A stretch of DNA of 62,753 nucleotides, counting the filler, from Hausera hauseri (lineage: Eukaryota), in the NCBI GenBank assembly GCA_046269625.1. It is 10 parts of 10 records of this genome, joined end to end, with 100 filler letters (N's around TTAATTAATTAA, not from the genome) between each part and the next. Parts side by side here need not be neighbours in the genome. Positions count along the whole stretch, not along the records: positions 7,350 to 15,325 come from JBJURY010840968.1; positions 15,426 to 26,248 come from JBJURY010151088.1; 8 more parts are not named here. The stretch is one strand, 5' to 3'. The position numbers and the translations under genes were made by a program. Shown in pieces: positions 7,745-60,843 of this stretch (position 1 is the stretch's first letter; every line of letters begins with the position of its first letter). The notes beneath the pieces are model-generated. The model did not search any database, was not told the DNA's origin, and saw only the letters and a list, made by a program, of their open reading frames with translations.

Positions 7745-9130
7745 AATGTGAAGGATAATGAAGAATTTATACTTTGTCGTCCATGTTATCATAAATGGCA
7801 GAGTATGTGCTGTTTATCTTGATGAAATGTGGCGAGATGGATTTTTCTGTCCAACATGCATTTCAGTGGAAAATATTAATATCAAACCAATTATGTACAA
7901 ATCGATGTACTTACCTCACAATGAACTCAGTAAACATATTGAAAATCGTGTGAATAATTTCTAAAAAAGTTTATCCGTCAGTTAGTGAAATTGTTAATCG
8001 TGCTTTATTAAATAACGATAAAACTGTTGATGTTAAACCTGGTATAAAAAGCCATTATTGTGAAACATGCGAAATGTCAATCTTTTAAATATCGCAAAAG
8101 CAATATTTGACTTTCAAGAAGTTGATGGTCATGAAGTATGTTCCTTTGGACTTCATGTACATGAATAGGCATCCGATTGTCCTGATCCAAATTCTAGGCA
8201 AGTTTATATAGCATATCTTGATTCAGTCCATTATTTCAGTCCGAAAATATCGAACAAATGTTTATCTTGATTTTTTGATCGGTTATTTAGAATGTTAGAA
8301 AATTAGGATTTACTATGGCTCACATTTCGGCGTGTCCTCCGGCAGAAGGGGATGATTATATTTTTCATATGCATTCCCCTGAACAGAAGTTTCCCAAGCC
8401 AAAACGTTTGCAGGAAAAGTACGTAAAGATTCTTGAAAAATCGACGAAAGAAAATATTGTTGATTACAAAGATATTTTCAGTGATGCTTTGCATTGAAGT
8501 ATGCTAAGTCCAACTGAATTGCTTATTTCGAAAGAAATTACTGGCCAAAAGCAAATTTGCCTCCAATTAATGATCCAGATCCATTGATCAATAGTAATTT
8601 AATGATCGGAAGAGATAAATTTCTGTGCTTAGCAAGAGAAAAGCATTTGGAACTCTTGTCCTTGCGTCGTTCTAAATTCTTGACATTATGTTTCTGTTAC
8701 GAATTACATATGGAACAGAAACATTCCGCCCTTCATTCTTGCAATGCATGCAATAAACAAATCAAGGTTCGTTTTACTTGCACATTTTTACTTCCACATC
8801 CGTTAATTAAAATAGATTCAACTATTATTTTCCAAAATGCTAATCAACCAACATTGGAACTTTAAGATACAACCAGAAAACATTCTTGCCAATGCCGCGA
8901 AATAAATTACAAGATAAATTTCTGTTCTAAAATTAAAGACATGGTCAAACATACGCAGTGCTGTTCTTTGTTACGAAATTCATTTTCCGTGCATGCCAAG
9001 CTTTGCAACGATCCTAAATGTCAGGTTCCAAATTGTCAAGCTTTGCGTTTCATTTGGAGACAACAAGGTAGCCAACAATGGATGCAACAAGCACAGATTT
9101 TAAGGCGCCGAGTATCTTCAGTGCAACGTG
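7745..9130 (+). pseudogene. CREBBP/EP300: CBP/p300 acetyltransferase fragment (PHD-HAT-ZZ-TAZ2), intronless and disrupted
   Basis: WRDGFFCPTC, HIENRVNNF, DKTVDVKPG, VYIAYLDSVHYF, AHISACPPAEGDDYIFHMH, KPKRLQE, DPDPLINSNLMIGRDKFLCLAREKHLE and HAKLCNDPKCQVPNC match CBP/p300 in order. Many stops, frameshifts and internal deletions. Confidence 0.93.
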
Positions 9131-9814
9131 GAATACATGTCGACCAATTTACTCCTACTCCATTGAATTCACAACCGCAGCCTTTTGAAAATTCTGTAAA
9201 TAAACTATCTATGAATAATGGCTATAATATATGCAATAATGACTTTTCTAAGCAGAAACCATTGCCTTCAAATATTATTCCTCCAACATTTCAATCTCAT
9301 TCATCTCAAAATGAAAATATTTATTCTAATAGTGTTAATGGTACATTAAATACCGCTAACCCAAATTATTTTACTAATCAGAAAACAGTTACGGATGAAG
9401 ATGTACGTGAAGATTTTATCAAAAATTTTAACGACTGGCTTGACACTTATCCAAACGAAATCATTGTCAATCCTTCATTTCAAAACATCCAGTCTGTCCG
9501 TGACGCCTCTATGAGATCAACGAGATTACTTAACAATAATCCTATATACATCGCGCCTATTCCACAACAATTACCTCCCACTCAAACAGCAAATTTGCTG
9601 TTTAAATATCCGAAACGAAGCAATCCTCAATCTGTCAAAGCTGTTCAAGAGTTAGCGAAATCAGTTCAGTTAATGCAGAAACCTCGGGAACGATTTCCAG
9701 AGTCGCTATCAATAAAAAGTAATTATATTATATGTATGCATATCGTTACTTCATTATTTATAATGCGAAACGATTCTATCAGTGAGAGCTGTCAATGATT
9801 TAGGTGAGAAGTCG

Positions 9815-11124: not shown

Positions 11125-14100
11125 TGATACTAGATGCCACGGCACATTCTGGTACAGGCAATATCGTTTAATCTTCTGGCCGTTTCAACACCGCCACTGC
11201 AGTTTTTCTGCTGAAAGCTGATCTATTATTTGGAGACACAGCACATAGACTTTCTTATTGATTCAGGAGCTGACTTTTCACTTCTTCCTTTGTCTTTCGC
11301 TCCTACATCCAACATAGTTCTCTCTCCTCCACTCTTCACTGCCTGTGGTCAACCCTTGAATATTGTAAGTACCATAAAACTGTCCTTCACATTCAACAAC
11401 CTACCAGGGAAATTCTCTTGGAAATTTCATAGCCAATATCAGATCGCTCATTATAGGCTCCGATTTTCTGGCTGCATACAATTTGTTAGACGACTGTAAG
11501 TATAGACGTCTCTTGCGCAGGAAATCCGTTGAAAATACCAACAAATGTTTACCAGACAACGAGTCGTATACCTTGTCTTCCTCTTTTCATTCAAATGTCA
11601 ATTTGACATGCTGTTCATCGGTTGATAAAAACACTTAATAATTCATCAATATTTTAATCTCTTCAAGTGTGAACAAATCAATCTTGAAACAATCGTCTAA
11701 ACCGAATGTCGTTAGTGAAGTATTCAGTCATTCTACATCAATTACAGCCACTGATATAATATGACTTGGTTATTCTTATCGATGGGTTCTGATCTTAAAT
11801 CCTATATCAAAACTTCTTGTTTCTGCATTCTCAAGAAGGACGTCAATTTCAAGCCGCATTTTACAACTTATCACCACATAGTCACCGAACACCAAAGACC
11901 TATCAGACAAAAGGTAAGGTCATTGTCTCCTCGTAGACGAAAAGCCGTTGAATCAGAGTTTAATGAACTCGAAAAGGCTGGCATAATTCGAAGATCCAAA
12001 TCACCATGGGTACTTACAGACCATGCGGTGACTATCATTAGTTAAATAATCTAACAACCTTGGATGCCTACCCTCTACCTCTCATAAAGAACATCCTGCA
12101 TAGTCTTACCAACACTAACATGTACTCCACAACTGACCTGCACAAAGCATATAATCAAATTCCGGTTGCACCTGATGATATTCCAAAAATTGCTGTTATC
12201 ACTCTATTTGGCCTCTACGAATATATTTTCCTGCCATTTAGTTTACGTAGTGCTTCCCAAACTTTTTAGCGGCACATTGATACCGTACTCTCTGGTCTGG
12301 ACTTCGCTCATCCATACACTGATGACATATTAGTTGCCTCTACGTCTGCCAAACAACATCAAGAACACCTTCGCATTATTTTTCACAGACTGCATAACAA
12401 TAATTTGCAAGTCAACTTCTCCAAGTGTAATTTTTTTCAAAAACGTGTAAATTTTCTAGGTCACGTAATCACTCCTCACGGCCACTCTTCACAACCGGAT
12501 CGACTACAACAACTAAAGAACGTAACTCTACCAACGACTACTACGGACATGAGAAGCTTTTTAGGCATACTCCACTTCATCCACAAATACATATCTCATT
12601 ATTCTGAGCTCACAGCACCTTTTGCACATTTATCATCCGGAAAAAAGAGGCAGTTGATTCACTGGACTCCTGATTTAATAACTAAGTTTGATTACTTACG
12701 CGATGGCCTAAAATCCATCGAAATACTGGTCTATCCAAAGCCCAATGCAAATCTTATAGTTACAAACGATGCCTTGACCATAGCAACTGGTGCGATATTA
12801 CACCAAATATACAATGGCGTCAATGAACCATTAGAATTCTATTCTCGAAAGCTCACGCAACCCGAAAGCCGTTGTTCAACATTTGACTGTGAGTTACTCG
12901 CCATAGTTCTGGCAGTAAAACATGTCAAACATCTACTTATCTTTCGTCCATTTGTCATTCAAACTGATCACAAGCCTCTCCTGCACATCATGTTATTAAA
13001 ACAGCCATCACCGAGGCAAGAGCGACATATATCATACCTGTCTACGTTTAGCTTTGTTTTGGAATACATCTCAGGCACAGATAATCTGGTAGCAGATTTT
13101 CTATCGAGGTCTGTTGGGTCCATCACAGTTGAGCCAATTTTTTCATACGAAGTGTTAAAGGCAAATCTACCGTCTGCTGACCTCCTTAGTTCCTTCAAAT
13201 CTTTCGAGATCATCGATGGCATCGCTTATGATACGTCAAACATCGGTAATAAAAAGATCATTTTAGCACCACCTTCACAAAAGCCAGCTTTTGTTCATGC
13301 GCATTCACTCCATCATCCAGGTTTGAAAGCAACCTTTCGCCTGCGTCAACGTCATGTAGTATGGTTATCAATACGCAGAGATGTACAGGGCTAAGTTAAG
13401 GAATGTGTAGCCTGTCAAAAATACAAAATAAACAAACACCTTAAACCGCCACTGTACCATTTTCCATGTGTATCACGTTTTCATACAGTTTATCTTGATC
13501 GTGTTGGTCCTTTACCTTCAGACAACGGATATCAACGTATACTTACCATGGTGGATCGTGCTTCTCGCTGGCCTGAAGCCGTTCCTCTTCGTTCAACAAA
13601 CACTGATTCAGTTGCTGACGCCTTCATAAAAATTTGAGTCAGTCGTTTTGGTTCCCCACGTTACATAATAACGGACCAATGTCCACAATTTGAGTCGTAA
13701 CTTTTCAAATCACTTGTCAAACGCTTGGAAATATCACATTTTTATACTACACCATATCATCCTCAAGCAAATGGCCTTCTTGAAAGGTTTCATAGAACAA
13801 TGAAAGTTTCCTTAAAAATCTTGGCTGACACTCATCGTAACTGGACGTCTATTCTACCATTTATCCTACTAGGTTGGCGCAACACACCTTCTAACACTAC
13901 CGGTTGCGCTCCAACTGAAGAACTCTTTGGAACTCCAATTCGGGCCTTATTTGAGCTTTCTGATCTCGACGACAACCCTACAGACGAATACATTCGTGAG
14001 GCACAATCTCACTTCGTCGAGGTCAGCTCAGATTCATTCTGTCGCCTCTTTAACAACAAATCCTATATTCCTAAGGATTTATATTCCGCCAAGTTTGTGT

Positions 14101-14702
14101 GGTTGAAGAATCAATCGCCTTCAGGCTTTAGACCTCAATATGTTGGCTCATACAAACTGCTAAATCCTTCATCTCACACGGCAATTGTTTTACGCCAAGA
14201 TAAACCTCATAACGTCCACCTTTCAAATCTGAAGCCAGCTTTCTTCATTGATGACACTCCGAATGCCAATGCTACCAATCTTGCGCCGTTGCAGCAATCA
14301 CTGTTCGATCACACTAAATCATCATCATTTCCTCCATCCGTCTCGCCTCCCTCTCCTCCATCATGTTCACTAACTTCTTCACTTCCTTTTTTGCTTGACT
14401 CTTCTTCACTATCATCTCCGTCACAAAATATCACTCAACAGCCCATCACAAATCCATCGAGTAAGCTACGCAGAGTGATATTTAATACGTACAGCAGAGA
14501 AAAGTTCTTTGATGGCACACAACGCCTGACCCGTACTAAAACCGAATATGCACCGAATATTGTTTCTTTTTCGATTCATCGTTTTCATTCATCTCATTTC
14601 CATCATTCGTTTTCGCCTTCACCTTGTTCTTCTAAGCCACGGGGGGCGATGTGGTGCCGCGGTTGCGGTTGCAGCTTATGTCCTATCAATACCCAAGGAT
14701 GA
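11118..14702 (+). pseudogene. pol: Gypsy pol (PR-RT-RNase H-IN), disrupted
   Basis: Protease FLIDSGADFSLLP; RT DAYPLP and KAYNQIPVA; RNase H NDALTIATGAIL, ELLAIV, TDHKPL and NLVADFLSR; integrase H..H/C..C zinc motif and TTPYHPQANGLLERFHRTMK; Ser/Pro-rich tail. Confidence 0.95.
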
Positions 14703-14710: not shown

Positions 14711-16162
14711 AGCTGATCTAAATCAACCAAAACCGGCTAAACAGTTAATGAAGAAGAACCCGCACATCGCCTCAGAATTATGAATTACGTATTACAGTCA
14801 AAGAACGATTTGCTCCTACAACAAAACCACCATGTCTCGTACAACAACGTCTTCCACTACTGCGTACAAACGAGAACAATTATGTCATAGAAGACGGCAA
14901 CACCTCAAGAAATTGAAAAAATTTAAATGCCATTAGTAAACCCTGATGCTCACTCACAGGTAACAATTACAGGCAAGTCGTATAAGTCGGACAGACCGTA
15001 AACTTCATGAAATAGTACAGAACAGAATACAATGTTGAACAAGCTGTTGATTATATTGAAAGTGCAAAGTAAACACTAAAAAGCCAGTAAAATATCAGAG
15101 CACAGCAAGGAAGGTCAAAACTGCTGAAAGTGTTGTTTCTGTTTATGTTGTGCCACGCATCGTCAGTGTTTAAAAAAAGAAATGAAATTATCCTCCGGTT
15201 ATATGTTTTCTTTATTTGAAGTTTTGTCCAAGATCCATAAATAGTATTTTGTGGTGGTAAATTTTGATGAATCATCGATGTCGACACACAAATGAACGAA
15301 CAAACAACAATCCAGACAAAATTTANNNNNNNNNNNNNNNNNNNNNNNNNNNNNNNNNNNNNNNNNNNNTTAATTAATTAANNNNNNNNNNNNNNNNNNN
15401 NNNNNNNNNNNNNNNNNNNNNNNNNTTATACCATTCGAAGCGAACCGAATAATAGCTATAATCACCAGCGAGCAAACCAATGATGAAGCCATAAGGAAGG
15501 CGCATACAGAACATTTCGTTGGAAGAATAATGGGGATCCAAGAAGCTGCAATGTATTTCGAATACTTACAGACTGATGATGACAAACCGCAATACGATAG
15601 GAACTTAGTTCCCCTAAGCGAAACCCTGCCACCGGTGAAACCGAAACTACCGGTCGGAAGACAAAGAAAAATAAAGGAAATTGACCATAACGCAGACCTA
15701 GTCAGGGAATTGAGACAGTTATCAGTACCCACCTCGAGCTGAGATAATAAGGAACTAATCGAACTAATGAGAGATTTAATTAGGATAGTTAATTATACTG
15801 GACTCCAAGGCGACATATTTTCAGAGAAAGAAAGGCGGTTATATAATGTAGCTCGGACCATGAAGACTTCGCGATTTAAATTATCTAAAAGCACCCTCCA
15901 TGACGAAACAGTAATTGATAGAATTATGACAGACAATACGACGGAAGAATTAAGAAACGTTTTGATATATTTGGCAGTAAAATCTAATCCTCTCCGAGAA
16001 AATGAGTTCGACAAGGCAATCGGGTTAGCTAGGAAAGCGGCAAGAAGGGTACCTAAAGAAATAAAATGGGCTAAACTATTTAAAAAAGAGGACAATGCGA
16101 AAAGGACTAATAACTTAGAGGATATAGTACGAAATTTCTCTTCGGGAAAAGGGAACGAATCA

Positions 16163-17287
16163 AACTGGTTAATCAACCTACTAACAATAATGATGTTAGT
16201 GAAGCAGATGGAAGCAGTCACCATATATGATTGTGACAAATTCAAGGTGGGTCAGAAATACTCTTTAATGGACTTAGAAACATGTGAAGATGTGAGACCT
16301 CAGAAGCTTGAAACAACAGAAAAAAGTATATATTATATCAACAACGTGAACGAATCGCAATGGATGCGACGGAATGCATGATACGGAGATCACGCAGCGT
16401 TTTTCATTGTGGCAATATGCATGGGCATTCTTCAATAATCAAACCAAAAACACCATTAATTTCGATGAATGTGGACAGACAGCACAATGTTTCGACATAC
16501 TGGAAAATACTGGATAAGTTTACCTAATGGAGGCGCTACCACAGCCCCTAGCAAGCTAACAGGGACAAATTTAATCAAAGGATTATCAGAAAAAAAGTTC
16601 GAGGATACAGCCAACAAAGGAATTTATAGGCCCAAGGACATAAAAGCCTTTAGGGAATTCTTAGCATTTCTGCGACAGAGAACTTATGAACTAAATCGGG
16701 CTATGTCAATGGTCATGGACGAAACCCACTTTCAAGCGAAATGGGAATCATTACTCGGCGCTAATCACTATTAAAGAGTAACTTTAGAGATATTGTATAA
16801 AATTTGGGGAAGGTTTCTGATTTTCGGACAAGCCGCATCCGGAATTCTAGCTATCCACTTTTTGGTTCAGCTAGCCAAAGCAGTAATCCAAGCCATCATC
16901 AACGGATATGAAATATTCATATTAACCGGATTTTCCTGCAAAATTTTGACTGCAGTTATCACACCCTTTGAAAAAATGCTCAAGGCTTATGAAGAAAACC
17001 GATGGAAAAATGACGTACAACGTCATGTCGGATATTATAATCGTAAACGGCGAGGGCGACCGTCGATCTTCTACAGACGCAAATCTAAGAAAAAAACAAC
17101 ACAAAGAGACGATTCAGACGATAACGAGCCTAAGGGAGGAGAAGCGAATTTCAGAATAAGAATGCACAAAATTTACTCAGCAATTAACGCACCGTTGCCC
17201 ATCATGCCGCCAACAGCACCGATATATGAAGACTGTGACTGCAAATCAATCGTATCTTGTAGGTCAGAGATCTATCAAACCCATTAA
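16163..17287 (+). pseudogene. env: Chuvirus/Jingchuvirales-type class III fusion glycoprotein (env-like), internally deleted
   Basis: Internal signal peptide NWLINLLTIMMLVKQMEA, then VTIYDC...YSLMDLETC...(fs)YQQRE...ECMIRRSRSVFHCGNMHGHSS. C-terminal GIYRPKDIKAFREFLAF and WGRFLIFGQAASGILAIHFLVQLAKAVIQAIINGY membrane region. Most of the ectodomain is missing near 16485. Confidence 0.75.
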
Positions 17288-17378
17288 TTATGAGGATCCT
17301 TATAAAAAGACAAAGCAATATGGAGTATTACGGAAAATGAATGTTATCCATTAAGGGCCAACCAAAAATGACCACGGA

Positions 17379-20300
17379 ATGTTGTACTCAAAAAGAATAT
17401 CGCGTCACATAGAATCGAAATCGACGATCTGGGAGAACCTGAAACTATGTTCAATCTCAAGTTCACTACCCCAGGAACCGCTCATTGACAGTCGCATTAT
17501 GGAGATAACGAATGACGACTTGTACCCAAACGGGAAATTAAGAAAATTAAGGAAATATATCATTTCAGCGCCAGAGATAACAATAAATGGACATAGAGTA
17601 TTTACAACAAAGCAATCAAAGGCAGCGTCAAATTGCTACGGGACAGTAGCAGAAGGGAGACCTTTCGCTAAAATAGACATCGAAGATTGGGACGTTTAAT
17701 CATTAATCGATACAGGATCAGAAAAGTAGTTTATAAAATACGAATTAGTACCAACCACACTGCGAGAATAATTATGCCCACCACTATCGTCAGATCCTGG
17801 AAGTGTAGGAGCATTTGGACAAGTATCAAAACCGAGATTTAAATAGACTCCTGCCGTTTATATGATGGGCCAAGCACTTCAACACGAATTTGCGATAATG
17901 GACCAGTTGACAGACGACGTAGTACTAGGTTGCCATATATTGAAACAAATACCAGGCATGGCAATCGATGTGCATAACGAGAAATTGATTGAGCTCGAAC
18001 CAATAAAAGGGACAAAAGCAATAAAAAAAAGGAAATCTGGCGAAGTATGGATTCCCGTAGATGAAGACATTTCGCCTAGAACTGAAATGATAATTTTCGC
18101 ACAGATTCGACAGGATGAAGATCTGCCAGTATATTTCGAACCTCAAGAGAATATTGATCCAAACCTTATGTTTAGCAATATTTTATGTAGAGTTGTGACG
18201 GGACGAATACCTATCAGATTAGTGAACAATGCACCAATTCCCGTAAAATTGCACGCTAGCACTACTTTAGGTCACACTTGTAGAGTATCGGCAGTGACAA
18301 TAGAGGAGAAATCATACAAGTGTGCGGAATTTCCACTTCATGTTGAAACCAAATTCTCTCCCAAAGTGTATTGCAAATTCTAAGACTTATTGTGTAAATT
18401 CCGTTCGATAATAGCGCAAAACGAAGAATACATAGATAGAGAAAAGGCTCTAATATTAACGATTCCATTGATGAAAAAACCCGGCTCAAATGACAAAATC
18501 GATTTAGAAGAAGAGAAAATTCCTAAGTGGTACCCGCCTCCTCACTCATTGAGACCAGAGATAACTAAAGAGGTAGAGCGAATGTTAAAGGCCGACATAA
18601 TTTGACCAAGTGATCGATCATGGTACTCACCTATAATTATGGTTAAAAAGAAAGGAACCACGATACATCGGTTTTGTATAGATTATCGCACATTAAACAC
18701 ACTGATGATGAAAGACTCGTTCCCTCTACCATCAGTAAAGAAAGCTTCAGACAAACTATCAAGAGCGAAATGGTTCACCACTCTCGACTTACAATCGTGA
18801 TATTGGCAAGTGGAAATCGAAGAAAAGGATCGATATAAGGCAGCATTTAAGACACACAATGGCGTATACGAATTTAATGTTATGCCCTTCGGCATCACCA
18901 CAGGACCTGCTATTTTTACTAGAATGATGAATAAGATGCTCATGGGATTTGATAATGCTTTCGCGTATTTGGACGATGTAATTATAGCATTGAAAACAGA
19001 AGAAGAACACTTGAAGGACACTGAGGATACACCCATACCACTAGAACAAGCAGGGTTGAAACTATATCCAAAGAAATGTAAATGGGCACAAAACGCAGTA
19101 TCGTATCCCGTTCACATAGTTGGAGAAGGAGGATCAAAACCGGACAAATCTCTACTAAATAAGATATCCGATTGCATGGAGACGCAGAACCAAAAAAAGT
19201 TAAGACATTGGTTAGGCCTATGTGGATATTATGCCACTTACTTACCAGAGAGTTTACAAATTAACTCACCACTATATCGCCTACTCAAAAAAGGAACTAA
19301 GTGGAGTTGGACGGAAGTGGAGCAATGAGCCTTTGATGAAATGAAGAAGGTTTTGACAAGTGAACCAGTTTTAAGATACCCGGATTTTAACCTGCCATTC
19401 ATCAATAAAACAGATGCAAGTAAAGAAGGCATAGGATACGAATTAGATCAGAAACGAGAAGACGAAGAATTGGAACATCCAATAGCTTATGATGGACGCT
19501 CGTTAAAAAAAGCAGAAAAAAATTATTCAGTTACCGAATTAGAAACTCTAGCCGTTAAAGAAGCACTACGACACTTTAACGTCTATGTCTACGGACAAAA
19601 GATCATAATAATGACTGAACACAAAGCAGTTACGACATTAAAAGGACGCGCTAATAACCCAATATGTAGATTAAACCGCTGCATCGAGGAAATCTCACGA
19701 TATAACATTGAATTCCAATACAAACCGGGTAATAAACACGTCGACGCCGACGCACTGTCAAGGTTAAAGACAAAAACGAGTGCAATCATCACACTAAAGA
19801 AACTACAAATCGTACAGTTGATCGAACAACAAAGAACTCTGATATCGGATAAGACAATTAGAATTACAGCAGAGTAAGCTAAAGACACGGTTATTCAGCA
19901 AATTATCGAGTTCGTACAAAACGGCAAAATGCCAAAAGGACGGCAACTGAAAAAGCATCTGCAGAAACACGGATATAAATATCGCGCATCAAACCAAGAT
20001 AACATCCTGTATTACAAAAGGGAAGGAACAAGATTAATAGTCATTCCAAAAGGATTACGCACCGAAGTACTCATGTTTGAACATGACTCGTATTTAGCTG
20101 GACACATGTCTTGGAAGAAGACATTGGAAAGAATATTAAATAAATACTATTGGTCAAGCACCCATATCGATTTAAAGAATTGGGTAGGAGCGTGCGAAGT
20201 TTGCGCGACAAAACAAAAGAAAACAAAAGGCTACGTAGCAGAATTAAAACCTATTAAAACGTACCAGATAGGCCCATGCAAGCCATGTCTTTGGATATAG

Positions 20301-21105
20301 TAGGACCCTTGCCTAAAACTCACAAAAATAACAGATATATTCTGACATGCGTGGACCGATTAACGCACTTCGTAGAACTAGTGGCACTACTAGATCAAAA
20401 GTCAAAAACTTTAGCCGACGCAGTAGTAAGAAAAATCATTTGCAGATACGGACCACCAGAACAAATTTTAACGGACAGAGGAAGGAACTTCACAAGCGAA
20501 TTATTCGAAAAAATTATCAAGATATTTGAAATTGAACGTTTAACTAATACCGCATACCATCCACAATGCAACGGAATGGGCGAACGAATGAACGCGACAG
20601 TCAAGACCAAAAGGATTGGGATGAATTCCTAGAAGGAACACAGTTCGCGATTAATACAACTCCACATCCAGCAACTGGATTTACACCGTTCTTTATGACG
20701 TATGGCCGAGAAGCAATCTTACCCACAGATCTACGTGTGACACCGTATGAAAAGAACCTCGAGGATTTAGAGCAAAACTTTGCCGAAGTTCTACAGACAA
20801 GATTACAAAAGTGTTTGGAAGTTGCGAAAACATTATCACTCGAATACCAGGAACAATTTAAAAAACAATATGATAAAAAGACTAAGCCTCATGATCTGGA
20901 AAAAGGAAATTGGATTTATATACATTATCCGGTCGCAAAAAAGGTACATCCTTAAAATTGACACGTACCGGAAGAGGACCATATGAAATCGTCCGTACCA
21001 CGCCAACTACAGTCTACGTAAATAAAAATGGTAAAGAAGTTGTATCGATTCAAACAGTAGTTAAAACGAATATAAGGCCAGCTAAACATTACAATCTAAG
21101 ATCAC
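17379..21105 (+). pseudogene. pol: Gypsy pol (PR, RT, RNase H, IN with GPY/F module), disrupted
   Basis: SLIDTGS at ~17709; FCIDYRTLN, YEFNVMPFG and AYLDDVII; TDASKEGIG, YSVTELETLAV and HVDADALSR; HDSYLAGH...CEVC; DIVGPLP, TDRGRNF and TAYHPQCNG; GRGPYEI; HYNLRSR. Confidence 0.95.
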
Positions 21106-21119
21106 GAGAAAACAAAACC

Positions 21120-22565
21120 TCGTCAATTATCACCAGACTGATATCATACGTTCAGATAATTCTAGCACTATCGCTAATCGCCTCTCATATTCCAAAAACA
21201 CAAGCTGGATGGTGGCATGGAACCGAAATGCAGAAAAATGAAATTAATAAAACGGAAAAGAAACCAACATTAGAAGAAACCCAAAAACAAAAAAATATCA
21301 CGTCATTACGATCAATCACAATTCATTATTGTTTGCCGAACTCCATATGCGTTGGATTTACGATACAGAAAATATACCACGATTCTGGAAGATTTCAAAT
21401 TGCCCTAGATGATATAATAACAAAAGAAACAGGGAATTGTGATTTCGGACCTAAAGAGCATACGCAATGTTGCAATACAAAATTCGGACATACTTATAAC
21501 CTTACTTATCTGTTGTATTCATCAAAATTATCTGAAAACTACGAAATAAAACCGCAATTTCAATTAGTTATTCCTGCTTGGAACAAGCACCATGGGATAA
21601 AACCCAACGAAATGCTCTAGTCCATCAACCCAGTAAAGCGGATGCTGGAAGAAAATATCGCCAGTATTTCAGAGAACCCCAAGAACAATTGTGTTCAAGT
21701 AAAAACAAAAGGATGATTAATTAACGGTCGAGTAACTTCAGTCCGGTTCCTGAAAGAAAACATACAAGCTCATAATCAACAATACTGCCAAATCGACTTC
21801 GAACAACCAAAAATATGTTGTAAGTTATCACAAAAATATGACTATAGAATTCAGCTAGATTTATATGAAATCAGAACCAACCAATCGAGTATTTATTTAG
21901 GAAGCTACCGACTCAGGAATCCAATCAAGTCGAATTTATTTAATATGACAACGAATACAAAAATAAAGTCTACTATTCCGGCAATTATCAAAACTATTTC
22001 AACAAATAAACCACCTCAGAAAGATCTAGAAATAATTCCGATAAAATACTGGACATAACAATGCGAAACAACTTTTATTGTAGAAAAAGCACTTAATTAC
22101 GACTTAAAAATAAGCTGCCGAACATCATATAATAATCAGAAAGTAATATTGGCGAGAGGCAAAAATCGAATCAAATGTACCTACTTGAAGCCCGAAACGG
22201 ATTATATTGTACAAGTGAAAGCAGAGAATAGACAAAGTAAAACGTTTACGGTACGAACTTTAAATGAAATTGTCTCAATGAAATCATTAACCAATGACGA
22301 AGCGGAAGACGAGGCGACAACTACTGTTAAAATAAAAAGTTTAACTGAACAGACAACCTTGTCGTTAATATCGATTTTTGGAGCATCAATGTTCACTCTC
22401 ATAATCTTAATTGCGTTTTGTCGATTGATTACCAAAAACTGCTATAATAGACGCCCTAAAATCTACGAGAGAGAATTAAGGGTAATGGTACCAAAGGATG
22501 GAATCAATGATGGAATAACCCGACAACTACAGATCAGGTTATTCCACCATCAAACAAAGAATTAA
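21120..22565 (+). pseudogene. Type I membrane protein with Cys-rich/FN3-like ectodomain, in frame with the integrase C-terminus
   Basis: One frame runs from 20910 to 22565 with three in-frame stops. Signal-like IITRLISYVQIILALSLIASHIPKTQA; two Cys-containing repeats; FN3 signature LKPETDYIVQVKAEN; TM LSLISIFGASMFTLIILIAFC. Confidence 0.65.
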
Positions 22566-22625
22566 TTCAAATTTCGAACAATACTTTGTTTTAGGATTAA
22601 TCCTTATTTTGTATTTTCTTTCAAA

Positions 22626-25028
22626 ATGGTAAGTACGAGCAGCCGACCTAGGATCGACGAATTCCTGCAGAGGTACGGACCAGTTCTCATTCCAAAATCA
22701 AAGGGCATATACCGAAGGATAAATTATGCATTACGGACAGAAGTACATGTCGAATACAGGAAAGTAAATGAAATACCTAACGATCTGAAAGGTACCACTG
22801 AAGACAATCGCACGGTTTTGTTATACGCAATGAGTGATAATAATCAAGTCAAGTCATATGATCTTAAGAAGCTAATCCAAAGTAAAACGGCCAGAATAGA
22901 GGATATATTCATCCATTTAGCCGACGGAGAAATTTATTACAGAATAAAGAATCCACAATGGGACGGCAACGAAGGGCGCCAATACCGATTTAGCACGTTT
23001 AGAATAAGTGGACAAGGTTTAGAAACTATTGACTATGGATTAGAATTTCGAGTAGCAGCCATGCCTGTTAAATTGATGTTCGAAGTAACCTATAAAGAGA
23101 GCTGCAACTTAGGCTTGCCGATTCTACAGTTCGAACAAACTCCAACAGAGGACCAAAAGGATGAACATCTGCAATAATATAAGTTAGTCCAAGACGGTCA
23201 TAACGTAAGGATCCTAGCTACGAACTATGGTAGAGAAAACGATGGATATGGAGTACCGATAGAGGTATCTATTCGAGAGATGGGACCGAATTATACTCAA
23301 CCATTATAAACCCTCAAAAACATGTCCAGGATTCACATGCGGAAGTGACTGGTCTAAGAAAAGATCAAATGATAAATGGAAAAGATATTCTACAGGTCCG
23401 TTTGGAACTAGACCACTGCCTTTACGGATGTATGATAACAGGATACAATGTCAGAAGAGAAATCGGGCTATTAGGGATATCCGATGCAAATATTGCCGGA
23501 CTTAGGGAAATAGCCACTCATTCAGTAGTGCAAGAACGAATGGAGAAAACCGCGCAAGGAAGAAACCGACCAACAGCGTCAGAAACCTTCTTTAAAATAA
23601 CCGTCGAAGCAATGAGTGACAACCCAAGTAAAATTCCAAGACCTCTGACGGCTAGGCAACGTTCCCAATATTTACAAGAAATTTATATAACGTTAAAATT
23701 GGAACATGAATGGACCCCTAAAAATCCCACATAAAATTTACGTAGCTGCATAAACCATGAACGAATAGATGGTAGATATACAAGAAATATAAAACCATAT
23801 TCCCCGATTTGAACCGTTCAACCAGCAGACAAGCATAGTATCAAAATCGTAGTACCAGAACCAAAACCAGAAGGCAAAGCGGGATTACGGACAATCAAGG
23901 AGAAAGAGAGGACATTGCAAGGAACACCAAAGCATCCAGAAGAACGAAGAGAAGAAACAATAATTAAAAAGATGAAAGTGGAAAAGAAACCCCAAGCCAG
24001 GAAAACATTATCCATCTACAACTATCTATTCAAAAAGCGTAAGACATATGAAGGACAAAAGGCAGAGAACCAACAGAATCAACCAAGTACCTCTCATGAC
24101 ATAGAACCGTTAAAGAAGGGAATTAGGAGTCCCATTATAACGGAAATTAACGCCCTAATAGGAAAAGGAAATAGAGGACGCATATTTTAAAACAACCCAA
24201 GATTTTCCCAGAATGTTGGGAACTACCGAATACTATAGCAAAAAAATAATAAAGGAAGCTATGTTCTTCAATAAACTTGCCCCAGCTAGAGAGGTTTTTG
24301 AAAACACTTATGTATGGGAGAATACTAAATTTGGAACCTACCTTACGTCAATTTTTCTATCAAAAAGGACAGGGAAGATAATAGTTCCCGTGGAAGAGCA
24401 AATCCGAATATTGCTGAAGAAACAATATAAGAAATATAAAATAGAAGGAAGTATTCCTGACCTAGATAATGACCTTATAACGGATTGGACCCTGATTCAA
24501 GTAGACTGTGATCCACGCAAAAGTTCGATAAACGTCAAACAAAAGGTAATTCACGGGTAATTATATCAAGATGGAGATGGCCTTGTGTTTAAACCCATCG
24601 AACTGATCATTCAAGTTGATTTAGACAAAGATGATTGGGGCAAGGAATACAGTGAATGTCCCGTATGTCAAGCCAATTTAAGACAAGGCTACATAATTTT
24701 AGACAATAGAAATTGCCGTCATAAATACTGTCCAGATTGTCTAGACAAGTGGACACTCGACAATGGGAAAACGACATGCTCAGTATGCCGAGCTGAAGCT
24801 ACAGAATTAAATTACTACTCAGAGGGGAATTATACACGAGTTGTTAGAATTAGACCTTATCACAGCTATAATTTGGAAACGAACCCAGTAGCCAGTCGAG
24901 ACCCAAGGAATTCACCAACTGATCTGCCCGAAAGAATGAATAGGTTAAGACAACCCAGAACATTGGGCGCCACCACTTCTGACGCAATAGGCTCCTCCGA
25001 GGATGCCGCTCAGGAAGGAGAAATGTGA
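22626..25028 (+). pseudogene. Accessory ORF (fragmented) ending in a C3HC4 RING finger
   Basis: A chain of same-strand ORFs. ORFs 24213..24560 and 24585..25028 share a frame across one stop. CPVC-x15-CRHKYCPDC-x12-CSVC is a RING-HC pattern. Confidence 0.7.
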
Positions 25029-25717
25029 GAAATTACAGTCAACTAACAGAGACAACTGAAATTGTTAACATTTCCTATTACTATGAAAGTGTATATATTA
25101 TTTTAATCGAATTGTTGAAATAAAAAATGGAAAATTTTGAAATAACAAATACAGTAGTTCGAGAAATCTAGTTAATAGAGTTTTATTTGTATATAAGCCT
25201 ACAAAAGTGAATTTAAGTAAAAACCAACATTGTGCTGCAAGATCTGCTGCTATATAAGCAGATCACAAAACGATGGTAGTCAGAAGTTTGGAAACAGAAA
25301 TTTAGTGTCCGACTTAGAATCGAACAGCAAAAATTAAAGACTTATTATCTGCGTTATCATTTTGAATTGATATTGCTGAAAGTGAACGTTGTGATATTCT
25401 GTGATCAAATAAAGGTTATTTTAAAATTTGTTTATTTAAACTCCCATATAGTTTTCTCATCGTCCCTTAAGGACGATTTGTACTACACTAAGGATAAAAT
25501 CATACTTAAAATCATATAGTTAAGTTGAGAATCTATAAACTGAGACATTCATTTATTTCGCACGCAGTGCCAGCATTACATACTAAAATCTTTTAAAATT
25601 ATTAAGGCACAAGCAGATTACTTGAGAACGAGTAATCTTAACCTGCTGAAAAGCGATATAAATTGAAATTAAATATTGTTATAGTGGGAGACGATAAGGG
25701 CCACCCCAACTGTAACA
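25024..25717 (+). repeat. LTR (~694 bp) of the giant Gypsy element
   Basis: Preceded by purine tract AGGAAGGAGAAA; starts TGTGAGA and ends TGTAACA. TATATAA near 25251 and AATAAA near 25408. A PBS follows. Confidence 0.8.
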
Positions 25718-25721
25718 TACT

Positions 25722-25738
25722 TGGCGACCCTAGCAGGA
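25722..25738 (+). promoter_or_regulatory. Primer-binding site (tRNA-Arg-like)
   Basis: TGGCGACCCTAGCAGGA, 4 nt after the LTR-terminal CA. The tRNA identity is inferred. Confidence 0.65.
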
Positions 25739-26034
25739 GAGTTTGTTCCTCGCTAGACTTTACTGTTGAGAAACCAATTAACGACATACCGACGAATACC
25801 GCCATTTACATCAAGTAATTGATATAATAAGAACCGAGAATTGAAATTTGGGATTATAAGTTGATAGGGGGAATTAACTAAATTGAATTGAGAGCAAACA
25901 CTGATAGGCTCAATTTGAATCAAAACTCGTTAGTAAACGAACAAAAGGAATTTAATTGACGAGAAACACGAAATAGGCTTTATACAGAAGAAACGGCCAG
26001 TTGGAAAACCAAGAAAAATAAAAGAGGTAGACTA

Positions 26035-26248
26035 TAATGCAGATTTTATTAGGGAACTGAGGCAATTATCAGTACCCACTCCGAGCTCAGATAATGAAGA
26101 ATTTATAGAACTAATGAGAGACTTAATTAGGATAGTTAATTATACCGGACTCCAAGGCGACATACTGTTTGAAAAAAAAGACTAATATACAATGTGCTCG
26201 GACCATGAAAACTTCGCGATTTAAATTATCTAAAAGCACCCTCCCTGA
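26035..26248 (+). repeat. Diverged second copy of ~15690-15903 (internally deleted tandem element)
   Basis: agggaactgaggcaattatcagtacccac...taaaagcaccctcc aligns by eye to 15703-15900 with scattered substitutions. Confidence 0.9.
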
Positions 26249-26348: not shown

Positions 26349-27314
26349 AGTTCTATTGTCGTATTTACTTACTCGAGGTCATCAAGTGAGAGTTCTTTCA
26401 CAACTAATACGAAAATAGCTGTCAGCTGATTATATTCGCCCATTTATTCCAAAAAACACTGATAATAAATATACAGGAGCTACGGTTATTAAACCTGTTT
26501 GAGGATTCTATCCTAATCCCATCCCAACATTGGATTTATCCAGTTTGTATTCCAGTATCATAATGGCTCACAATCTCTGCTACACAGCGATGATCAATGG
26601 TGATCCTAGTAATTTAAATTTGTTCCCCGAAGATTAAGAGAAATCCTCCAAAGGCCACTATTTCGTCAAAAAAGCGGTAAAAAGAGGTTTACTTCCAGAG
26701 ATTTTGTAGCAACTAATTGATGCCAGAAAAAAAGCTAAGCGGGAATTTGCTATCGAAACCGATCCGTTTAAAAACAAGTTTTCGATGGACGTCAGTTAGC
26801 CTTGAAAATTTCCGTTTACGGGTTCACCGGTACTCAAGTTGGTCGATTACCGTGTTTAGCAATCTTATTATCAGTTACTGGTTACGGTCGAGTTACGATT
26901 AAAAAAACGAAACAGTTAGTAGAGGAAAACTTTACGAATTCTAAGGTATATGCACAGGATGCAAAGGTTATCTACGGGGACACCGATTCTCTGATGTGCA
27001 ATTTTGGTGTTGAGATAGCAGAGGCGGCTATGAAACTCAGTCGAGAGGTAGACGATTTTATTACGGGTTATTTCATTGCACCAATCAAATTGGAATTCGA
27101 AAAAGTCTATTATCCGTATTTGTTGATTAGCAAAAAGCGTTACACCGGAATGTATCACACAAAAACAGATAAATTTGATAAAATGGACTGTAAAGGTCTG
27201 GAAATTTTCAAGGAATTAACGAAAACTGGTAACGAATATAACAACAAAGAAGCTCACACAAAACTGACATTAAAATTACGCAAACGAGATTTTGGTAGTG
27301 CACCACAATTGGGT
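26349..27314 (+). pseudogene. POLD1: DNA polymerase delta catalytic subunit fragment, intronless and disrupted
   Basis: [92 protein letters not shown] and RKRDFGSAPQLG. Confidence 0.95.
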
Positions 27315-27578
27315 GGAATAACTTCTGTCATAATATTACCTGGGGAATTGTTGTCTCAAGCAGCACCGTGCTTGGAGCAAAAAACCTATCCAACCAAAAT
27401 AATTAGTTCATATAGAGGAACACTCTATGACGCGTTGGAATTTGTGAAAACTAATTGCGGTGTGGAAATCAATCCGAATAATCACGGCGAATTATTGAAA
27501 ATTGTCAAAAGCTGTCTTGGTGCAAAATTCGTCAGTAAATAGTCCGAAAGGGCCTGTAAAATTGCACTAGATGCAGTT
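27315..27578 (+). pseudogene. CCT3: T-complex protein 1 gamma fragment fused in frame to the POLD1 fragment
   Basis: GITSVIILPGELLSQAAPCLEQKTYPTKIISSYR...LLKIVKSCLGAKFVSK*SERACKIALDAV matches CCT3 GTTSVIILAGEML...HPTVVISAYR...ACNIALDAV. Confidence 0.85.
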
Positions 27579-31509: not shown

Positions 31510-32454
31510 CAGGGCTTTGCAGGTAAATCCGGAAAAAGTTTATGAGTTAAATTTTGTGCTTTACTGATTGAATTTATGTCAAATATTTTTCGTGTTTAAC
31601 CATATATCTTTCTACTTTCAGGAGCTTCATTGCATTCTTCAATTGGTTCACGCGATTTCATGGAACAGGTGCATCGATTCGCTAATGTTATTTTAGCCTG
31701 CTTCGGCCACTAGGCTGCAGAGATCGTCAGACTGACGAAAGCTTCAAAAGTCGTTGTATTTGTAGACGAGAAGAAATTTATTGTCGACGCAGAGATGAAC
31801 TGCCAAAACTCACGCGTCATCGCAATTGACCCTTCTGAGGTGTCTCCTGTGTTCAAAATTAAGAATCCTGCCAGTATGATGGTCGTCGGCGCCGTGGCGA
31901 GTGATGAGAGCATGATGCCACCCAATTTCATTGAGGCTGGCTTGAAGATAAACACGGTGGAGTATATCTCGGTCATAGAGATAATTCTCCTTCCCTGGAA
32001 GGAGAAGAAGTTTGGACTCGTCAACGTCGTGCTTGTTCAGGACTGTGCGCCCTGCCATGGGTCCAAGATGACGCAAGCCTTCCTGGTCGAGAAAGTTCCC
32101 TTCGTCGTGAAGTCAAGCATCTGGCCCTCCAACTCTCCGGACCTGAATGTTCTTCACTATTTTATGTGGGGCGTCGTTCAATCGAAGGTAAGCGTATGTT
32201 CTAAGGCCAGTGTCGCCACTCTCAAGAGCTCCGTCAAGCGGGAATTCAGGAAGATCGACAAAGACGATTTGGTGGGCTCGCGCGTCAGAATCGAGTCCGT
32301 AATGATGGCCAATGGCGGCCTCATTGAGTAACTTTACTCATATCTGACCAATAAATACAGACGTAAATATCTATGTTCATATCTGCATTATTACGATATT
32401 TATGGTCATTTCGTAATTTCAAGTAAAAATTCCGGTTTTATCTGCAAAGCAGTG
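31510..32454 (+). mobile_element. Tc1/mariner-superfamily DD37D (maT) transposon, internally deleted
   Basis: Imperfect 25-bp TIRs (cagggctttgcaggtaaatccggaa / ttccggttttatctgcaaagcagtg) with TA on both sides. Transposase motifs VFVDEKKF, VQDCAPCH and WPSNSPDLNVLHY; 37 residues separate the second D from the third position, now H. The N-terminal HTH is absent. Confidence 0.9.
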
Positions 32455-34813: not shown

Positions 34814-35085
34814 TGTCCGTGTATTAGTCCACAGTGAAAAATGCTACGAGATCGTCTCAGCATACATTCCATTCCATCTAATGATATCAACTCTTGTTGT
34901 TGGTACAGAAAATAACTTTTCTCTCTCCTTTCTAACTTGTGCGGCCTGGAATCTTCGCATACTTTTAAATCCATTAGAGAATACTTCTGTCCTAGTTTAA
35001 ACTTATCGCAATCGTAGACAGTAACAGCACATATTTGCTTTAATAACATCATGAAGGTAAGTAAGCTGATTAACCAATTTGGTTT
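34814..35085 (-). pseudogene. env: Class III fusion glycoprotein N-terminus (second copy), cut by contig end
   Basis: NWLISLLTFMMLLKQICA-VTVYDCDKFKLGQKYSLMDLKVC...YQQQE...ECMLRRSRSIFHCGLIHG. Confidence 0.75.
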
Positions 35086-38000
35086 GTTCTTCCGGCCACC
35101 ACCATCCGTCACTGTAAAATTGCGTAATATGTCTTCGATTCTGTTATTATTACTGGTCTTTTTATCTTCTTCCTTATCGAATAATCTCGACCAATTTACT
35201 TCTCAGGATAGCTTCCTAGCCGCTTTTCGTGATAAGCTTGTAGCTCTATTAATTTCGTTTTCCCGACTGGGATTTGTCTTGATGGCTAAGTACAGTAATA
35301 CTTTTCTTAGCTTTTCTATCGTATTCTCCACCATGATTTTCTTGGCTACTGCTTTATCGGTTAAGTTAATTTTTAATAACTTAACATGTGAATTTCTCAT
35401 CTTTCTGGCCGCATTAAATATCGCTCTCTCTTTATCGTCCAATGTGTCGCCCCGGAGGCTGGAATAATTTACGACTCGTATTAAATTCTTCATTAATTCA
35501 TTTAGTTCTTGATTGTCTGTGCTGAAGGTAGGGATCGACATCTGTCTCAATTCTCTAATCAATTCTCTATTATGGTCAACGTATTCTTGAATTTTCTTAG
35601 GCCTACCTACTGGACGTCTCTGTTTCCGAACGGTTGTTGACCTTATACTGAGTGGCACTAAATTCTTGTCGCATTGTTCTTTATCTTCGTCTGTTTATAA
35701 GTACTAAAAATGCTTTGCAGCGTCTCAGACTCCCGTGATTTGTCCTACGCATTGTTCTGTTTTAGCCTTGCGTGTAGCGTCTTCATTAGTCTGCTCATAA
35801 GCTATTACTACTACTATTCTGTTTGTTTCGTCGGGTGTAATCCCGACGTCTATTAGTTATTCTAAATTGTCTAGTATTCGCCCTTTAAAATAGAATCTAT
35901 AGTTTAGCTTGTTTCTTCCACCATTCTTTATTAATCATTCTCTTACGTCCTTTACATAGGAATAAGTAGTTAACTGACATTCTTACCTCGGGTTTAGCCC
36001 TCAAGACTTTAGCGTATTTCCTTATTAAAAGTTTCGGCACCATGCTATAAATTGTGTTCTCACTAGATAATTTAGTTAAAGTCGGAATAAGTTGCCTCAA
36101 CTTATTTTCAGTAGTGTTTACATTAATTATTTCAATTAAATACCTTTCAGTTAGCGCTGAATACAGTAGCAGCTCCACATTGAATCTTATATTCTGCGGA
36201 CACGTTTCTGTTTCATTTAGTAGTACTAAAGTCACTAAGTTTTCGGCCGTTAATGCATCCAAGTACGCATCCCATTCCAGTTCATTTCCAACGTCTCGAA
36301 GCCCATAGTCTACTAACACTATTCGTTTTTTGCACATTCTTGCAAAGTTTTTTTAACCTTGGCTGTATTTCTTTCAACTGTATAGTTCGGAAACCTATTC
36401 CGTTTCCAGAAGCATACTGAATCAGTTTTAATAGCTTACTGAGTTCGTTAGCAGAAATGAGTTCTCTATGATGATAGTTGGTTAGTTCGATAATTACGTC
36501 TCTTTGTAATCTTTGCACAAATTCACGCTTATATTTTATTTCTGACTCGGTATGAGCATATTTGTTCCGATAAATTTCGAGCTCTTTTACTAGTTCATCC
36601 AGCCTCGTTACTCTTTGCTTAATTCTAATGCATGTTTCTTCGACTTGTCGCAATTTGGGCATCAATTATCTCATCTTCTCATAATTAATTTCTGCCATTT
36701 TCANNNNNNNNNNTCACCAAGCGACAAGCTTACTTATAGATCTCATTGATGGTTTTTGAGTATGGATCTATCGCATCAATCAATTTTTTTACGAACTTAG
36801 ATTCTTCAAAACTAAGATGTTGGTCATTCGTTATCTTTGTCAACTCGGTATGGCAATTGTGATCTGTTCCAGACATATATTCTTGTGGTTTACGTAATAA
36901 TTTCATTGCTTCTTCTAGACCTGTTCTCTGTTCTGCACAAATATCTAAAGTTTCCAGATCTTGAATTGAGATTTCGTCCATAGGTTTAGCGGTCAAATGT
37001 TGGACTCCTTCTAGTCAGATGTTACTTAATCTTGGATAAAATCACAAGTCATATTCCGCTTTTCTGCGAAGTTTGTTTCTTCGATCATATTATATATTTC
37101 TTCCAATATCACCGCTTCTTGTTTCTTTTTCATAAATTTTACTCGTCGTAATGCTTCGAACTGCGTTCGAATGTCTATTTCCGCTTGTACTGTACCTAAA
37201 TTACGTACATTTTCTTCTATTTGCTTTTTTACAGATGGCTCGCTTTCTTGAAATTCTTTCTTACGGTTTTCCATTAATTTACTTAGTCTCATTATTAATT
37301 CGGACCATACCAACAATTGATTGCCAATATAGCCTTGTCTAACATTTTATACACATCCTGTAGGTCATCGTGTGGACCTTTTATGAAGTTCATAACCCGA
37401 CTGACATAACTCATTTTTATATTCGCCGAATTCTATTATACAGGCTTTTATTACATATTTAGTTTCGTCGTTATTCATAAGCATAATCAGATTTCTCAAA
37501 CTACCAATTTGTGACCTCTTTTCATTTTCCATTCCGATACGATTATCTAGGTCTGTATATTGTTTTGGTACAGCGAAGACTACTTTTATCATCTTCATTA
37601 ATGGAGGGATGTCTACGGGGTCTATACCTAATATTCCTATATCGATATCATTTCGGTTGTTAACCGGATTTTTCTAATCCAATTGATCATTGCATAGCGA
37701 ATTATCCATCATGCGCTCTAAATTGCGGATTATTCTCTTCAATTTGGGATTGGCCTCTAGTGTAGATAATAACGTTTGAGCTTTAGCAACTTTTATATTC
37801 ACACTATCTTTATTTCTGCTCCATCATTCCGAAAATTCGGCTCCACTTTCAACCCATGACTCTAACTCACGCTTCCATTTTAGCAACGTTTCAAGTGGCA
37901 CCTCTTCGATTTGTCTTAAGTCGATTGCTTCATCAAGCCTTCCTTCACTACATAACTTTAAACTTTTATATAACCTCTCAGCAAATTGTTGTTCCTTACC

Positions 38001-39608
38001 GGATATATCCACTTGTTCGCTAATTTGCTTTAACTTTTCTAAGTTCTGCTGCAGTATTTCTTGATCGTGGTATCTAATTCTCATTTTCTTTAATTCATCG
38101 GCATTTTTCCACGAACGCCGGACTTTCCATTTTCTTGGATCGAAATCATTAGTATTTTTTGTTTCTTCCTCATTAGTGGAAAGTGGACAACTCTCGTTAA
38201 TTTCATTGATCGACTCCACAGATTCTTTACCTCGATGAACGTAAATGGACCAATTTCCGGTGTATTTAAGCTAGGCTCTTCGCCGCTTTGTACAGCGACT
38301 TTCGTATCCTCCGCTTCTTTTGTTACTGGTGATCGCGAACGACTTATACATTTCCTTTCCAATGAGGTGCTGCGGCCTCTATTTTTCGTAATTTAAGTAT
38401 TAATGGCTCCATAAATTCTTTTTCGACTATACGCCTTCTGTAATCTTATCTACCTTCTTAACCGTGAACTCAGGCTTTGTATCTAAGTCGACTTCTGTCG
38501 AAGTTCCTGGTTTATCTATTATTTTTTTACTCATCGGAACACTCTTTTTTCGTGTCATATCAATTCGCTTGGGTGCTATAGCATGCTCATACTCAGTTTT
38601 TGGTTTTGCTAAACCATGATACACTTCCAGTAGCCTTAACTTATCTCCATATTCTTTTCAAGCCATCAAACTTTGTGGATTAACAGTTTCAGATTGAGGG
38701 TCTAGAAATTTCCCTCAAGTCCTGTATGTCATATTTCGCTTCTAAATTCTCGTTGACTTTAATCAATCTTGTCTTATTGAGTTTGGTGGATGAAACGCTA
38801 CTCGAATTCGGACATGACCTTGCAATGTGTCCTAGATGTGTCCATTTCTGCCGACTCTCTACCGGCCGTCTTCATTCACAGGTAATTTAGATGTATTTAT
38901 GCGTATATTGTACTGGGTTGACGTACCTAGGTTATTATCTACGTTTCGTCGACTATCATTATTCCGGTCACCATCATAACGGTTTGCATAGTTAAAACTT
39001 TTGTAGCTTCCTCCATTTCTATCCGTATTAAGATTCGACTTATTTATATTTTGATCGTTACCCTATTTTTTGTTTCGGTTGTTCCTGTAGTCATTACTAT
39101 TTTTATTTCCATAATTCCTATTACTATTAAATTATCTATCACCTTTTCCATGATTGTCATTCCGATTTCTGTCATTACGATCACTTAGATCATTATTTCT
39201 ATCGTTTCTATCATTTCTATCGTTGTGTCTAGCATATCTATATAGTGCCATTTCTAAATCTTGGGCCAATTGCGGAGTTTTCTCGGAATTCTCAGGTCTG
39301 GTCAAAATCAACTGCTTAACTAAATCTCGGGACCAAATACCATTAAATAATTGAGTCGCCATCATGATATCTAGATCTGGCGGGGTTGCCTACTCTGCTA
39401 TTACGTTCTGCGTCTGATTTAGCTTTTGTTACATTAGCTATTCTCAAGATACTTACATAACTATTAGCGAGTTTCTTCAATGCGAATGCAAACTGGGTTA
39501 CCGATTTACCCTTCTGTTGCACTCTATTTTGAAATTCCATAAGCTTCTGTTGCGGCGTTACTGTCGGTAATAATTTACGGTTTAATGCTCCTACTAAGGA
39601 GGACCAAG
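34814..39608 (-). mobile_element. 5' part of the giant Gypsy element: gag, long helical ORF region and env N-terminus
   Basis: Gag motif EFQNRVQQKGKSVTQFAFALKKLA, an Asn-rich spacer and knuckle remnant GHIARSCP (38809-38832). Then ~3.5 kb of fragmented same-strand ORFs, and a region homologous to 15426-16430. Confidence 0.85.

Positions 39609-60806: not shown

Positions 60807-60843
<37 letters not shown>

Follow-up and report, generated by a model that had tools for sequence, protein, structure and literature searches.

The stretch analysed here (the window) is 62,753 nucleotides of Hausera hauseri DNA (assembly GCA_046269625.1), made up of ten contigs joined with N spacers, and all positions refer to the whole window. 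The element in question is read from contig 3 (JBJURY010151088.1) and, for its 5' part, from the minus strand of contig 6. With a probability of roughly 0.7, we regard it as one decayed copy, among many, of a Ty3/Gypsy element with a class III-type env ahead of pol, likely of the published GAG-ENV-POL group, to which a pair of 3' genes has been added, predicted to encode a fibronectin type III (FN3)-fold surface protein and an inactive-exonuclease/RING protein. The evidence for this comes from the env and pol domains, from selection on the frame that links env to a long upstream region (region X), from an Atlas match to gag, from multi-copy coverage, from intact relatives of the two 3' genes (P0001 and P0003), from FN3 fold matches and from published precedent.

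An env gene ahead of a Ty3/Gypsy pol

On contig 3, which contains no gap, env precedes protease (PR), reverse transcriptase (RT), RNase H (RH) and integrase (IN), as had been claimed in an earlier reading of this DNA from sequence alone (the original prediction). The Pfam profile PF24664 (Monjiviricetes_fusion) was matched at about 16484-17005 with E 1.2e-18, above the Pfam cut-off and over model positions 433-606 of 653, and the matches to RVP, RVT_1, RNase H, H2C2 and rve follow. A predicted class III-type (gB/chuvirus-like) env upstream of a Gypsy pol is supported by this match, the class assignment being a match to a Monjiviricetes-wide profile; the label "chuvirus-type" in the original prediction was narrower than the model tested. 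The contig 3 env is internally deleted, as had been noticed, and is without model positions 97-432 (about 335 positions, or some 1 kb). Hydropathy placed its two C-terminal hydrophobic segments at about 16817-16873 and 16913-16969, and the gene closes with a stop ahead of pol.

The domain order PR-RT-RH-IN and the Gypsy-type RT and RH place the element in Ty3/Gypsy. A search with RT-RH yielded 231 proteins and 29 JGI loci. Among the 120 matches listed, identity was 33-47%, and neither a close pol relative nor a labelled errantivirus was present; the nearest of the listed proteins have the same domains as the element, and one is named Ty3-G Gag-Pol. Matches to env, X or the 3' genes were found in 0 of these 120 proteins and 0 of the 29 JGI loci. 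The insert between PR and RT gave no Pfam or PDB match and matched weakly to 3 of 124 proteins.

The coordinates of the long terminal repeat (LTR), polypurine tract (PPT) and primer-binding-site (PBS)-like motif were read by eye. The claim that extra open reading frames (ORFs) precede an LTR held for both ORFs, a membrane protein and an exonuclease-like/RING protein, and for a putative LTR, recognised from the PPT, the TG..CA ends and the PBS-like motif; a repeat search of the window found no second LTR copy or target-site duplication, and the window holds no tRNA to pair with the PBS-like motif.

Region X, the internal signal peptide and gag

In both contigs X passes without a stop into a signal-peptide-like segment (hydropathy 1.98 over 19 residues in contig 6), so that the signal of the glycoprotein is internal and in frame with the upstream ORF, exactly as had been described. 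Contig 6 does carry the start of env, and the homology by which the two contigs had been joined was recovered as an overlap of 1002 nt at 64.7% identity (E 1e-50). The original prediction had also suggested a comparison of selection between the copies. Over 296 aligned codons of X-signal-env the two contigs are 59% identical in amino acids, with a proportion of nonsynonymous differences (pN) of 0.225 against a synonymous proportion (pS) of 0.80, which is saturated; the C-terminal part of X taken separately gave 56%, pN 0.24 and pS 0.79. Because of this difference between pN and pS, X-signal-env is read as a conserved frame under purifying selection in two old subfamilies. Judged by their divergence (65% in nucleotides, 59% in amino acids, synonymous sites saturated), contigs 3 and 6 represent different subfamilies.

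Pieces of X matched no family in Pfam, PHROGs or NCBIfam, and a PDB search with one of them returned nothing meaningful. Upstream on contig 6, the gag capsid piece continues in a different frame to about 39200 and then into an N/D/R-rich stretch, and gag and X stand in different frames in this decayed copy. The gag piece matched 0 Pfam families and had no meaningful match in a PDB sequence search, its sole support being the Atlas matches. The order gag, X, env proposed for contig 6 was found on one strand, but with a 10-N gap that had been missed, with gag recognised by Atlas only and with the frames of gag and X differing. Likewise, for the proposal that signal peptidase frees a fusogen from a Gag-linked polyprotein, an X-env polyprotein with an internal signal is supported and release would be plausible, whereas the Gag link crosses frame switches and the assembly gap.

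We envisage that env would be translated within an X-env, and probably a Gag-X-env, polyprotein, would enter the endoplasmic reticulum (ER) by its internal signal and be freed by signal peptidase, and would then be anchored by its C-terminal transmembrane (TM) segment as a fusogen for cell-to-cell spread.

Copy number, decay and length

Contigs of run X1 aligned in large numbers (contig 3, 26,914; contig 6, 8,118), mostly at below 95% identity, and covered 30 of 30 bins of each; run X1 is possibly the window's own source, hence not independent, and its summed depth does not equal copy number. All parts of the element, the 3' genes included, are present as many diverged copies. Some of the run-X1 copies differ through small indels close to several of the frame switches, which fits lesions and decay of single copies.

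The element is estimated at about 16-17 kb, a figure obtained by adding to contig 3 the 3.8 kb present in contig 6, the kilobase lost from env, the absent start of gag and a 5' LTR. A composite of about 14 kb or more had been proposed; this composite joins two subfamilies (59% in amino acids) and is no single element, and "giant" overstates an element of this size. Past the LTR and PBS-like motif, the remainder of contig 3 (25718-26248) arrives at a second fragment, from the end of X, within about 270 nt; this may be either a derivative from which gag has been deleted or the result of an assembly that ran through a collapsed LTR.

Two genes downstream of integrase

The reading frame remains open from the integrase tail into the signal peptide of a second membrane protein, and continues for about 390 residues and a TM segment; the gene as a whole (21126..22520) has 3 internal stops. 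A search of 1.84 billion representative proteins with 21000-23306 gave four matches (P0001-P0004), all unnamed ENA singletons. P0001, an intact protein of 479 aa called with its own start upstream of the signal peptide, is 32-33% identical across the whole membrane protein (about 460-480 aa), with the cysteines conserved. Its structural model, built from 3 sequences (predicted local distance difference test, pLDDT, 49), consists of three beta-sandwiches. The best fold match was an FN3 domain (Z 9.0, root-mean-square deviation 2.3, 75 residues), multi-FN3 chains aligned to residues 73-401, and the FN3 matches include cytokine-receptor and adhesion chains (IFNAR2 D2, gp130, NCAM). In a viral library FN3/Ig-type and phage tail proteins were the foremost matches, and none of the best 50 bears the name of a fusogen; a role as a second fusogen was rejected on these FN3/Ig-type matches. 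A PDB sequence search with the P0001 alignment gave nothing meaningful and no match to a solved receptor. On the particle or cell surface, the FN3 protein would probably bind a host ligand, as an attachment factor or decoy receptor.

The second gene, ORF3, is broken in the window. P0003, intact at 870 aa, runs collinear with it at 34-45% identity; three successive pieces of the protein align to 22653-25025 at 34-44%, which indicates that the interrupted frames of this stretch belong to a single gene. The ENA contig that carries P0003 and the one that carries P0004 both measure 16,242 nt and are probably identical; that of P0002 measures 12,445 nt. The RING of the window has E 3e-7, and zf-RING_2 and zf-C3HC4 lie above cut-off both there and in P0003, with a C3HC4-type pattern. 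A DnaQ-like domain was weakly indicated in P0003 by PDB (E 1e-4), PHROGs, NCBIfam and Atlas searches. In an alignment with DnaQ 8h18, the catalytic D-x-E of motif I is replaced in P0003 by A and N, and the D of motif II by M; the motif I residues are the same in P0002 and in ORF3 of the window, where the first catalytic acids are missing as well. An active DEDD exonuclease was rejected on the replacement of these acids in P0003. The end of ORF3 spans the PPT and the start of the 694-nt TG..CA unit. Inside the cell, the dead exonuclease fold would probably bind nucleic acid and the RING ubiquitinate a host defence factor.

Atlas look-alikes of P0003 residues 56-435 included RNase T families and the C-terminal domain of arenavirus nucleoprotein (0.87); all scores were below 0.9, and these are leads only. 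Relatives of P0003 were found in 0 of 5 IMG/VR stretches.

The 3' pair, an FN3-fold surface protein and an inactive-exonuclease/RING gene as predicted, is a new part of such an element; no FN3 and RING cassette was described in the literature searched, most subscription papers lying outside the search. It is an open question by what means the envelopes of gB-type errantiviruses find target cells, and a conserved second surface protein is a candidate attachment factor. The dead-exonuclease/RING gene is a candidate for counter-defence, and both 3' genes have intact natural relatives.

Comparison with known elements

The original prediction held that env-bearing LTR elements normally place env 3' of pol and that this element was accordingly a new type of lineage. 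This is contradicted by Burro (PMC6431247) and by the GAG-ENV-POL elements of PMC13524379; the gene order with env ahead of pol is already published, and the element described here is a further example. Chary & Hayashi (eLife 2026, PMC13524379, which cites Sacco et al. 2022) describe elements of Nematoda, Bryozoa and Platyhelminthes that carry only gB-type ENV in the order GAG-ENV-POL, and state that the mechanism of env transmission is elusive for most elements. These errantiviruses resemble ours in having a Ty3/Gypsy pol with a gB/chuvirus-like env upstream, and our element likely belongs to their group. By eye, the N-terminal cysteine motif of our env is closer to the Platyhelminthes C1a and Insecta C1 rows of that paper than to its Bryozoa C2b rows. 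In contrast to those elements, however, the copy here is decayed, is estimated at about 16-17 kb against about 10.6-13 kb for those with LTR coordinates, and has 3' genes; for those elements no accessory ORF is named in the parts of PMC13524379 consulted, and the words "accessory", "RING" and "fibronectin" occur 0 times in its main text.

The giant Gypsy elements Burro/GYPSM1 of planarians (Arkhipova & Yushenova 2019, PMC6431247, through which we also know Grohme 2018) have env in frame between gag and pol. They are alike in that Gag is followed by a long multi-domain stretch and then by an env that matches fusion proteins of mononegaviruses and is in frame with the PR behind it, and in that their cargo is in part ubiquitin-related and includes a RING-type motif (PMC6431247). 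Of a single gag-env-pol frame such as Burro's, the element here has X-env in frame in both copies, with the gag-X and env-pol junctions broken. In Burro, of more than 30 kb, BIR, MATH, BCL2, ankyrin and Smc motifs lie in ORF1 (PMC6431247), whereas none of these was found in X with Pfam, PHROGs or NCBIfam and the cargo here, including a second membrane protein, stands 3' of integrase. Membership of Burro was rejected on length (about 16-17 kb against more than 30 kb) and on the lack of such Pfam domains in X.

Juno and Vesta of bdelloid rotifers (Rodriguez et al. 2017, PMC5408684) are LTR elements with a DEDDy ORF3, and thus share a DnaQ-like exonuclease domain 3' of pol. Their ORF3 is catalytically intact and replaces env, whereas here the first acids are missing, a RING is fused and env lies upstream. 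DnaQ-like domains are listed among known accessories in PMC6338049. BEL/Pao elements with a chuvirus glycoprotein (Dezordi et al. 2020, PMC7642597) likewise pair a chuvirus-like glycoprotein with an LTR element, but of another superfamily, the pol here matching Ty3/Gypsy. OVEX1 (PMC2717909) was set aside as irrelevant, the fibronectin in that work being a tissue marker.

Alternative explanations

Several points weigh against the reading of a decayed GAG-ENV-POL element with an added 3' pair. The gag-X-env-pol order was assembled from two subfamilies and across the 10-N gap of contig 6, which has gag on one side and env on the other and is bridged by a single run-X1 contig with a short side of 24 letters; no intact element was present among the copies observed. 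Relatives of X or of the X-env junction were found in 0 of 638 candidates of 372-2000 aa, 0 of 3015 of 1983-6313 aa and 0 of 141 JGI stretches, a weak absence given that only these lengths were covered, and a PDB sequence search with the C-terminal part of env gave nothing meaningful. P0001-P0004 were compared here as single proteins, their place beside a pol being presumptive. The P0001 model is weak (pLDDT 49), and Z values of 7-9 may reflect merely a common sandwich; the DnaQ-like matches are weak as well (E 1e-4 to 1e-2), and the P0003 model is poor outside the RING (pLDDT 35). The gap, together with the very many diverged copies and the continuation of contig 3 past the LTR into a fragment of X that lacks gag, would also suit an assembly product in which the gag side of contig 6 comes from another element and contig 3 combines several copies in a mosaic. 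We consider this very unlikely, as one X1 contig does span the gap, if weakly, the pieces share one strand and follow each other as expected, their order agrees with published elements (PMC13524379, PMC6431247), and env and pol stand on gap-free sequence. It is just as improbable that the 3' genes are passive cargo, either captured host fragments or a nested insertion, without a role for the element: host-gene fragments do adjoin transposons elsewhere in the window (Pol delta/CCT, Cse1), but the related proteins, at 32-45% identity, are encoded by uninterrupted frames of 479 and 870 aa, no cellular source gene for 21000-23306 was found among the 1.84 billion proteins, ORF3 ends at the PPT/LTR, and all bins are multi-copy in run X1.

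The FN3 protein might instead act at the surface of the host cell, either as a decoy receptor or as an adhesion mimic, forming with the RING ORF a counter-defence cassette unrelated to entry. The cytokine-receptor and adhesion chains among its fold matches, its short tail without a signalling domain, the adjoining RING/DnaQ-like ORF and the apoptosis and ubiquitin domains of Burro (PMC6431247) would agree with this; the FN3 matches, however, are tied within 1-2 Z units and so uninformative on function, and there is no sequence match to a solved receptor, which leaves the decoy as a possible explanation that we do not favour. A two-protein mode of entry, in which the FN3 protein would be the receptor-binding glycoprotein of the particle and would trigger the class III fusogen, is doubtful. 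The FN3 protein would suit such a role in being of type I topology, with a TM segment as well as a signal peptide, and in having N-glycosylation motifs and conserved cysteines; herpes gB requires partner glycoproteins. The FN3 gene stands behind integrase, where env is usually found, and in the contig 3 copy the integrase tail is followed by no stop; one polyprotein (Gag-X, env, pol and FN3 protein) may thread the ER membrane, for which the membrane topology would alternate correctly. Yet P0001 has its own start before the signal peptide, so that a separate ORF is as likely, env of the contig 3 copy has a stop before pol, and the published GAG-ENV-POL elements are not reported, in the parts consulted, to need such a gene. 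Similarly speculative, and in our view unlikely, is a two-glycoprotein lineage in which gag and pol would flank a class III fusogen and the usual env slot would hold a separate FN3 receptor-binding protein, possibly from one membrane-threading polyprotein, together with a pseudo-exonuclease RING ligase directed against host RNA-silencing factors; if true, it would amount to a complex invertebrate retrovirus with attachment and fusion divided as in herpesviruses.

Features of the element and other content of the window

Table 1. Coordinates of the contigs and of the predicted features of the element in the window.
Feature	Position	Strand	Remarks
Contig 3	15426-26248	+	without gap
C-terminal part of X	15428..16162	+	contig 3; one stop; in frame with signal peptide
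Signal-peptide-like segment ahead of env	16163..16216	+	contig 3; in frame with X
env N-terminal piece	16217..16483	+	one frame switch; PF24664 model 61-96, E 8e-5, in 16327-16497
env C-terminal part	16484..17287	+	PF24664; two hydrophobic segments, basic tail, one internal stop
Aspartyl protease	17652..17951	+	RVP E 0.0015 (second scan 0.027)
PR-RT insert, about 130 aa	17997..18380	+	in the place of Burro's dUTPase-like domain
RT + RNase H, Ty3/Gypsy type	18642..19703	+	pol frame: 9 stops in 920 codons
Integrase (H2C2, rve, GPY-type tail)	20043..21100	+	frame switches present
Second type I membrane protein	21126..22520	+	signal peptide, three predicted FN3/Ig-like domains, TM 22365-22421, short basic tail
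ORF3, broken	22626..25028	+	N-domain without family, DnaQ/DEDDh-like domain (about 23200-23460), linker, further domain without family, RING (24654-24791)
Polypurine tract	25012..25023	+	read from sequence
Putative LTR, 694 nt, TG...CA	25024..25717	+	read from sequence
PBS-like motif starting TGG	25722..25733	+	4 nt past LTR end
Second X fragment	25990..26248	+	about 270 nt after PBS; 83% in nucleotides to 15643-15903, nonsynonymous/synonymous rate ratio (dN/dS) 0.11
Contig 6	34814-39608	-	10-N gap at 36704-36713
env N-terminus, cut by contig end	34816..35025	-	PF24664 model 7-88, E 2.7e-6
Signal-peptide-like segment	35026..35079	-	contig 6; in frame with X
Region X	35080..38900	-	contig 6; about 3.8 kb with several frame switches; coiled-coil-like in part
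Truncated gag capsid C-terminal piece	39346..39606	-	contig 6; 20 of 30 Atlas matches Retrotrans_gag, 0.93

The contig at 7350-15325 (plus strand) carries another Gypsy element, with RT/RH at 12270-13391 and an integrase piece at 13701-14699; an ORF upstream in it (8866-9795) has two weak TAZ zinc-finger stretches (E 0.006), and the ends of the contig share 77 nt, probably an assembly overlap. At 26772-27539 (plus strand) pieces of the Pol delta catalytic subunit and one piece of CCT-gamma form a chimera without introns beside a Gypsy fragment. Its Pol delta fragment scored 218 bits to 6s1m_A, the three chains that came next reaching 158-159; 6s1m_A and these chains are taken to be the human and yeast enzymes, and the host is on this ground probably an animal. 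A piece of a DDE_3 transposase, with a Cse1/exportin-2 fragment (E 6e-31) after it, lies at 31714-34691 (plus strand), and 55662-62753 is almost wholly AG/AC-type microsatellite, in which the long ORFs are artefacts.

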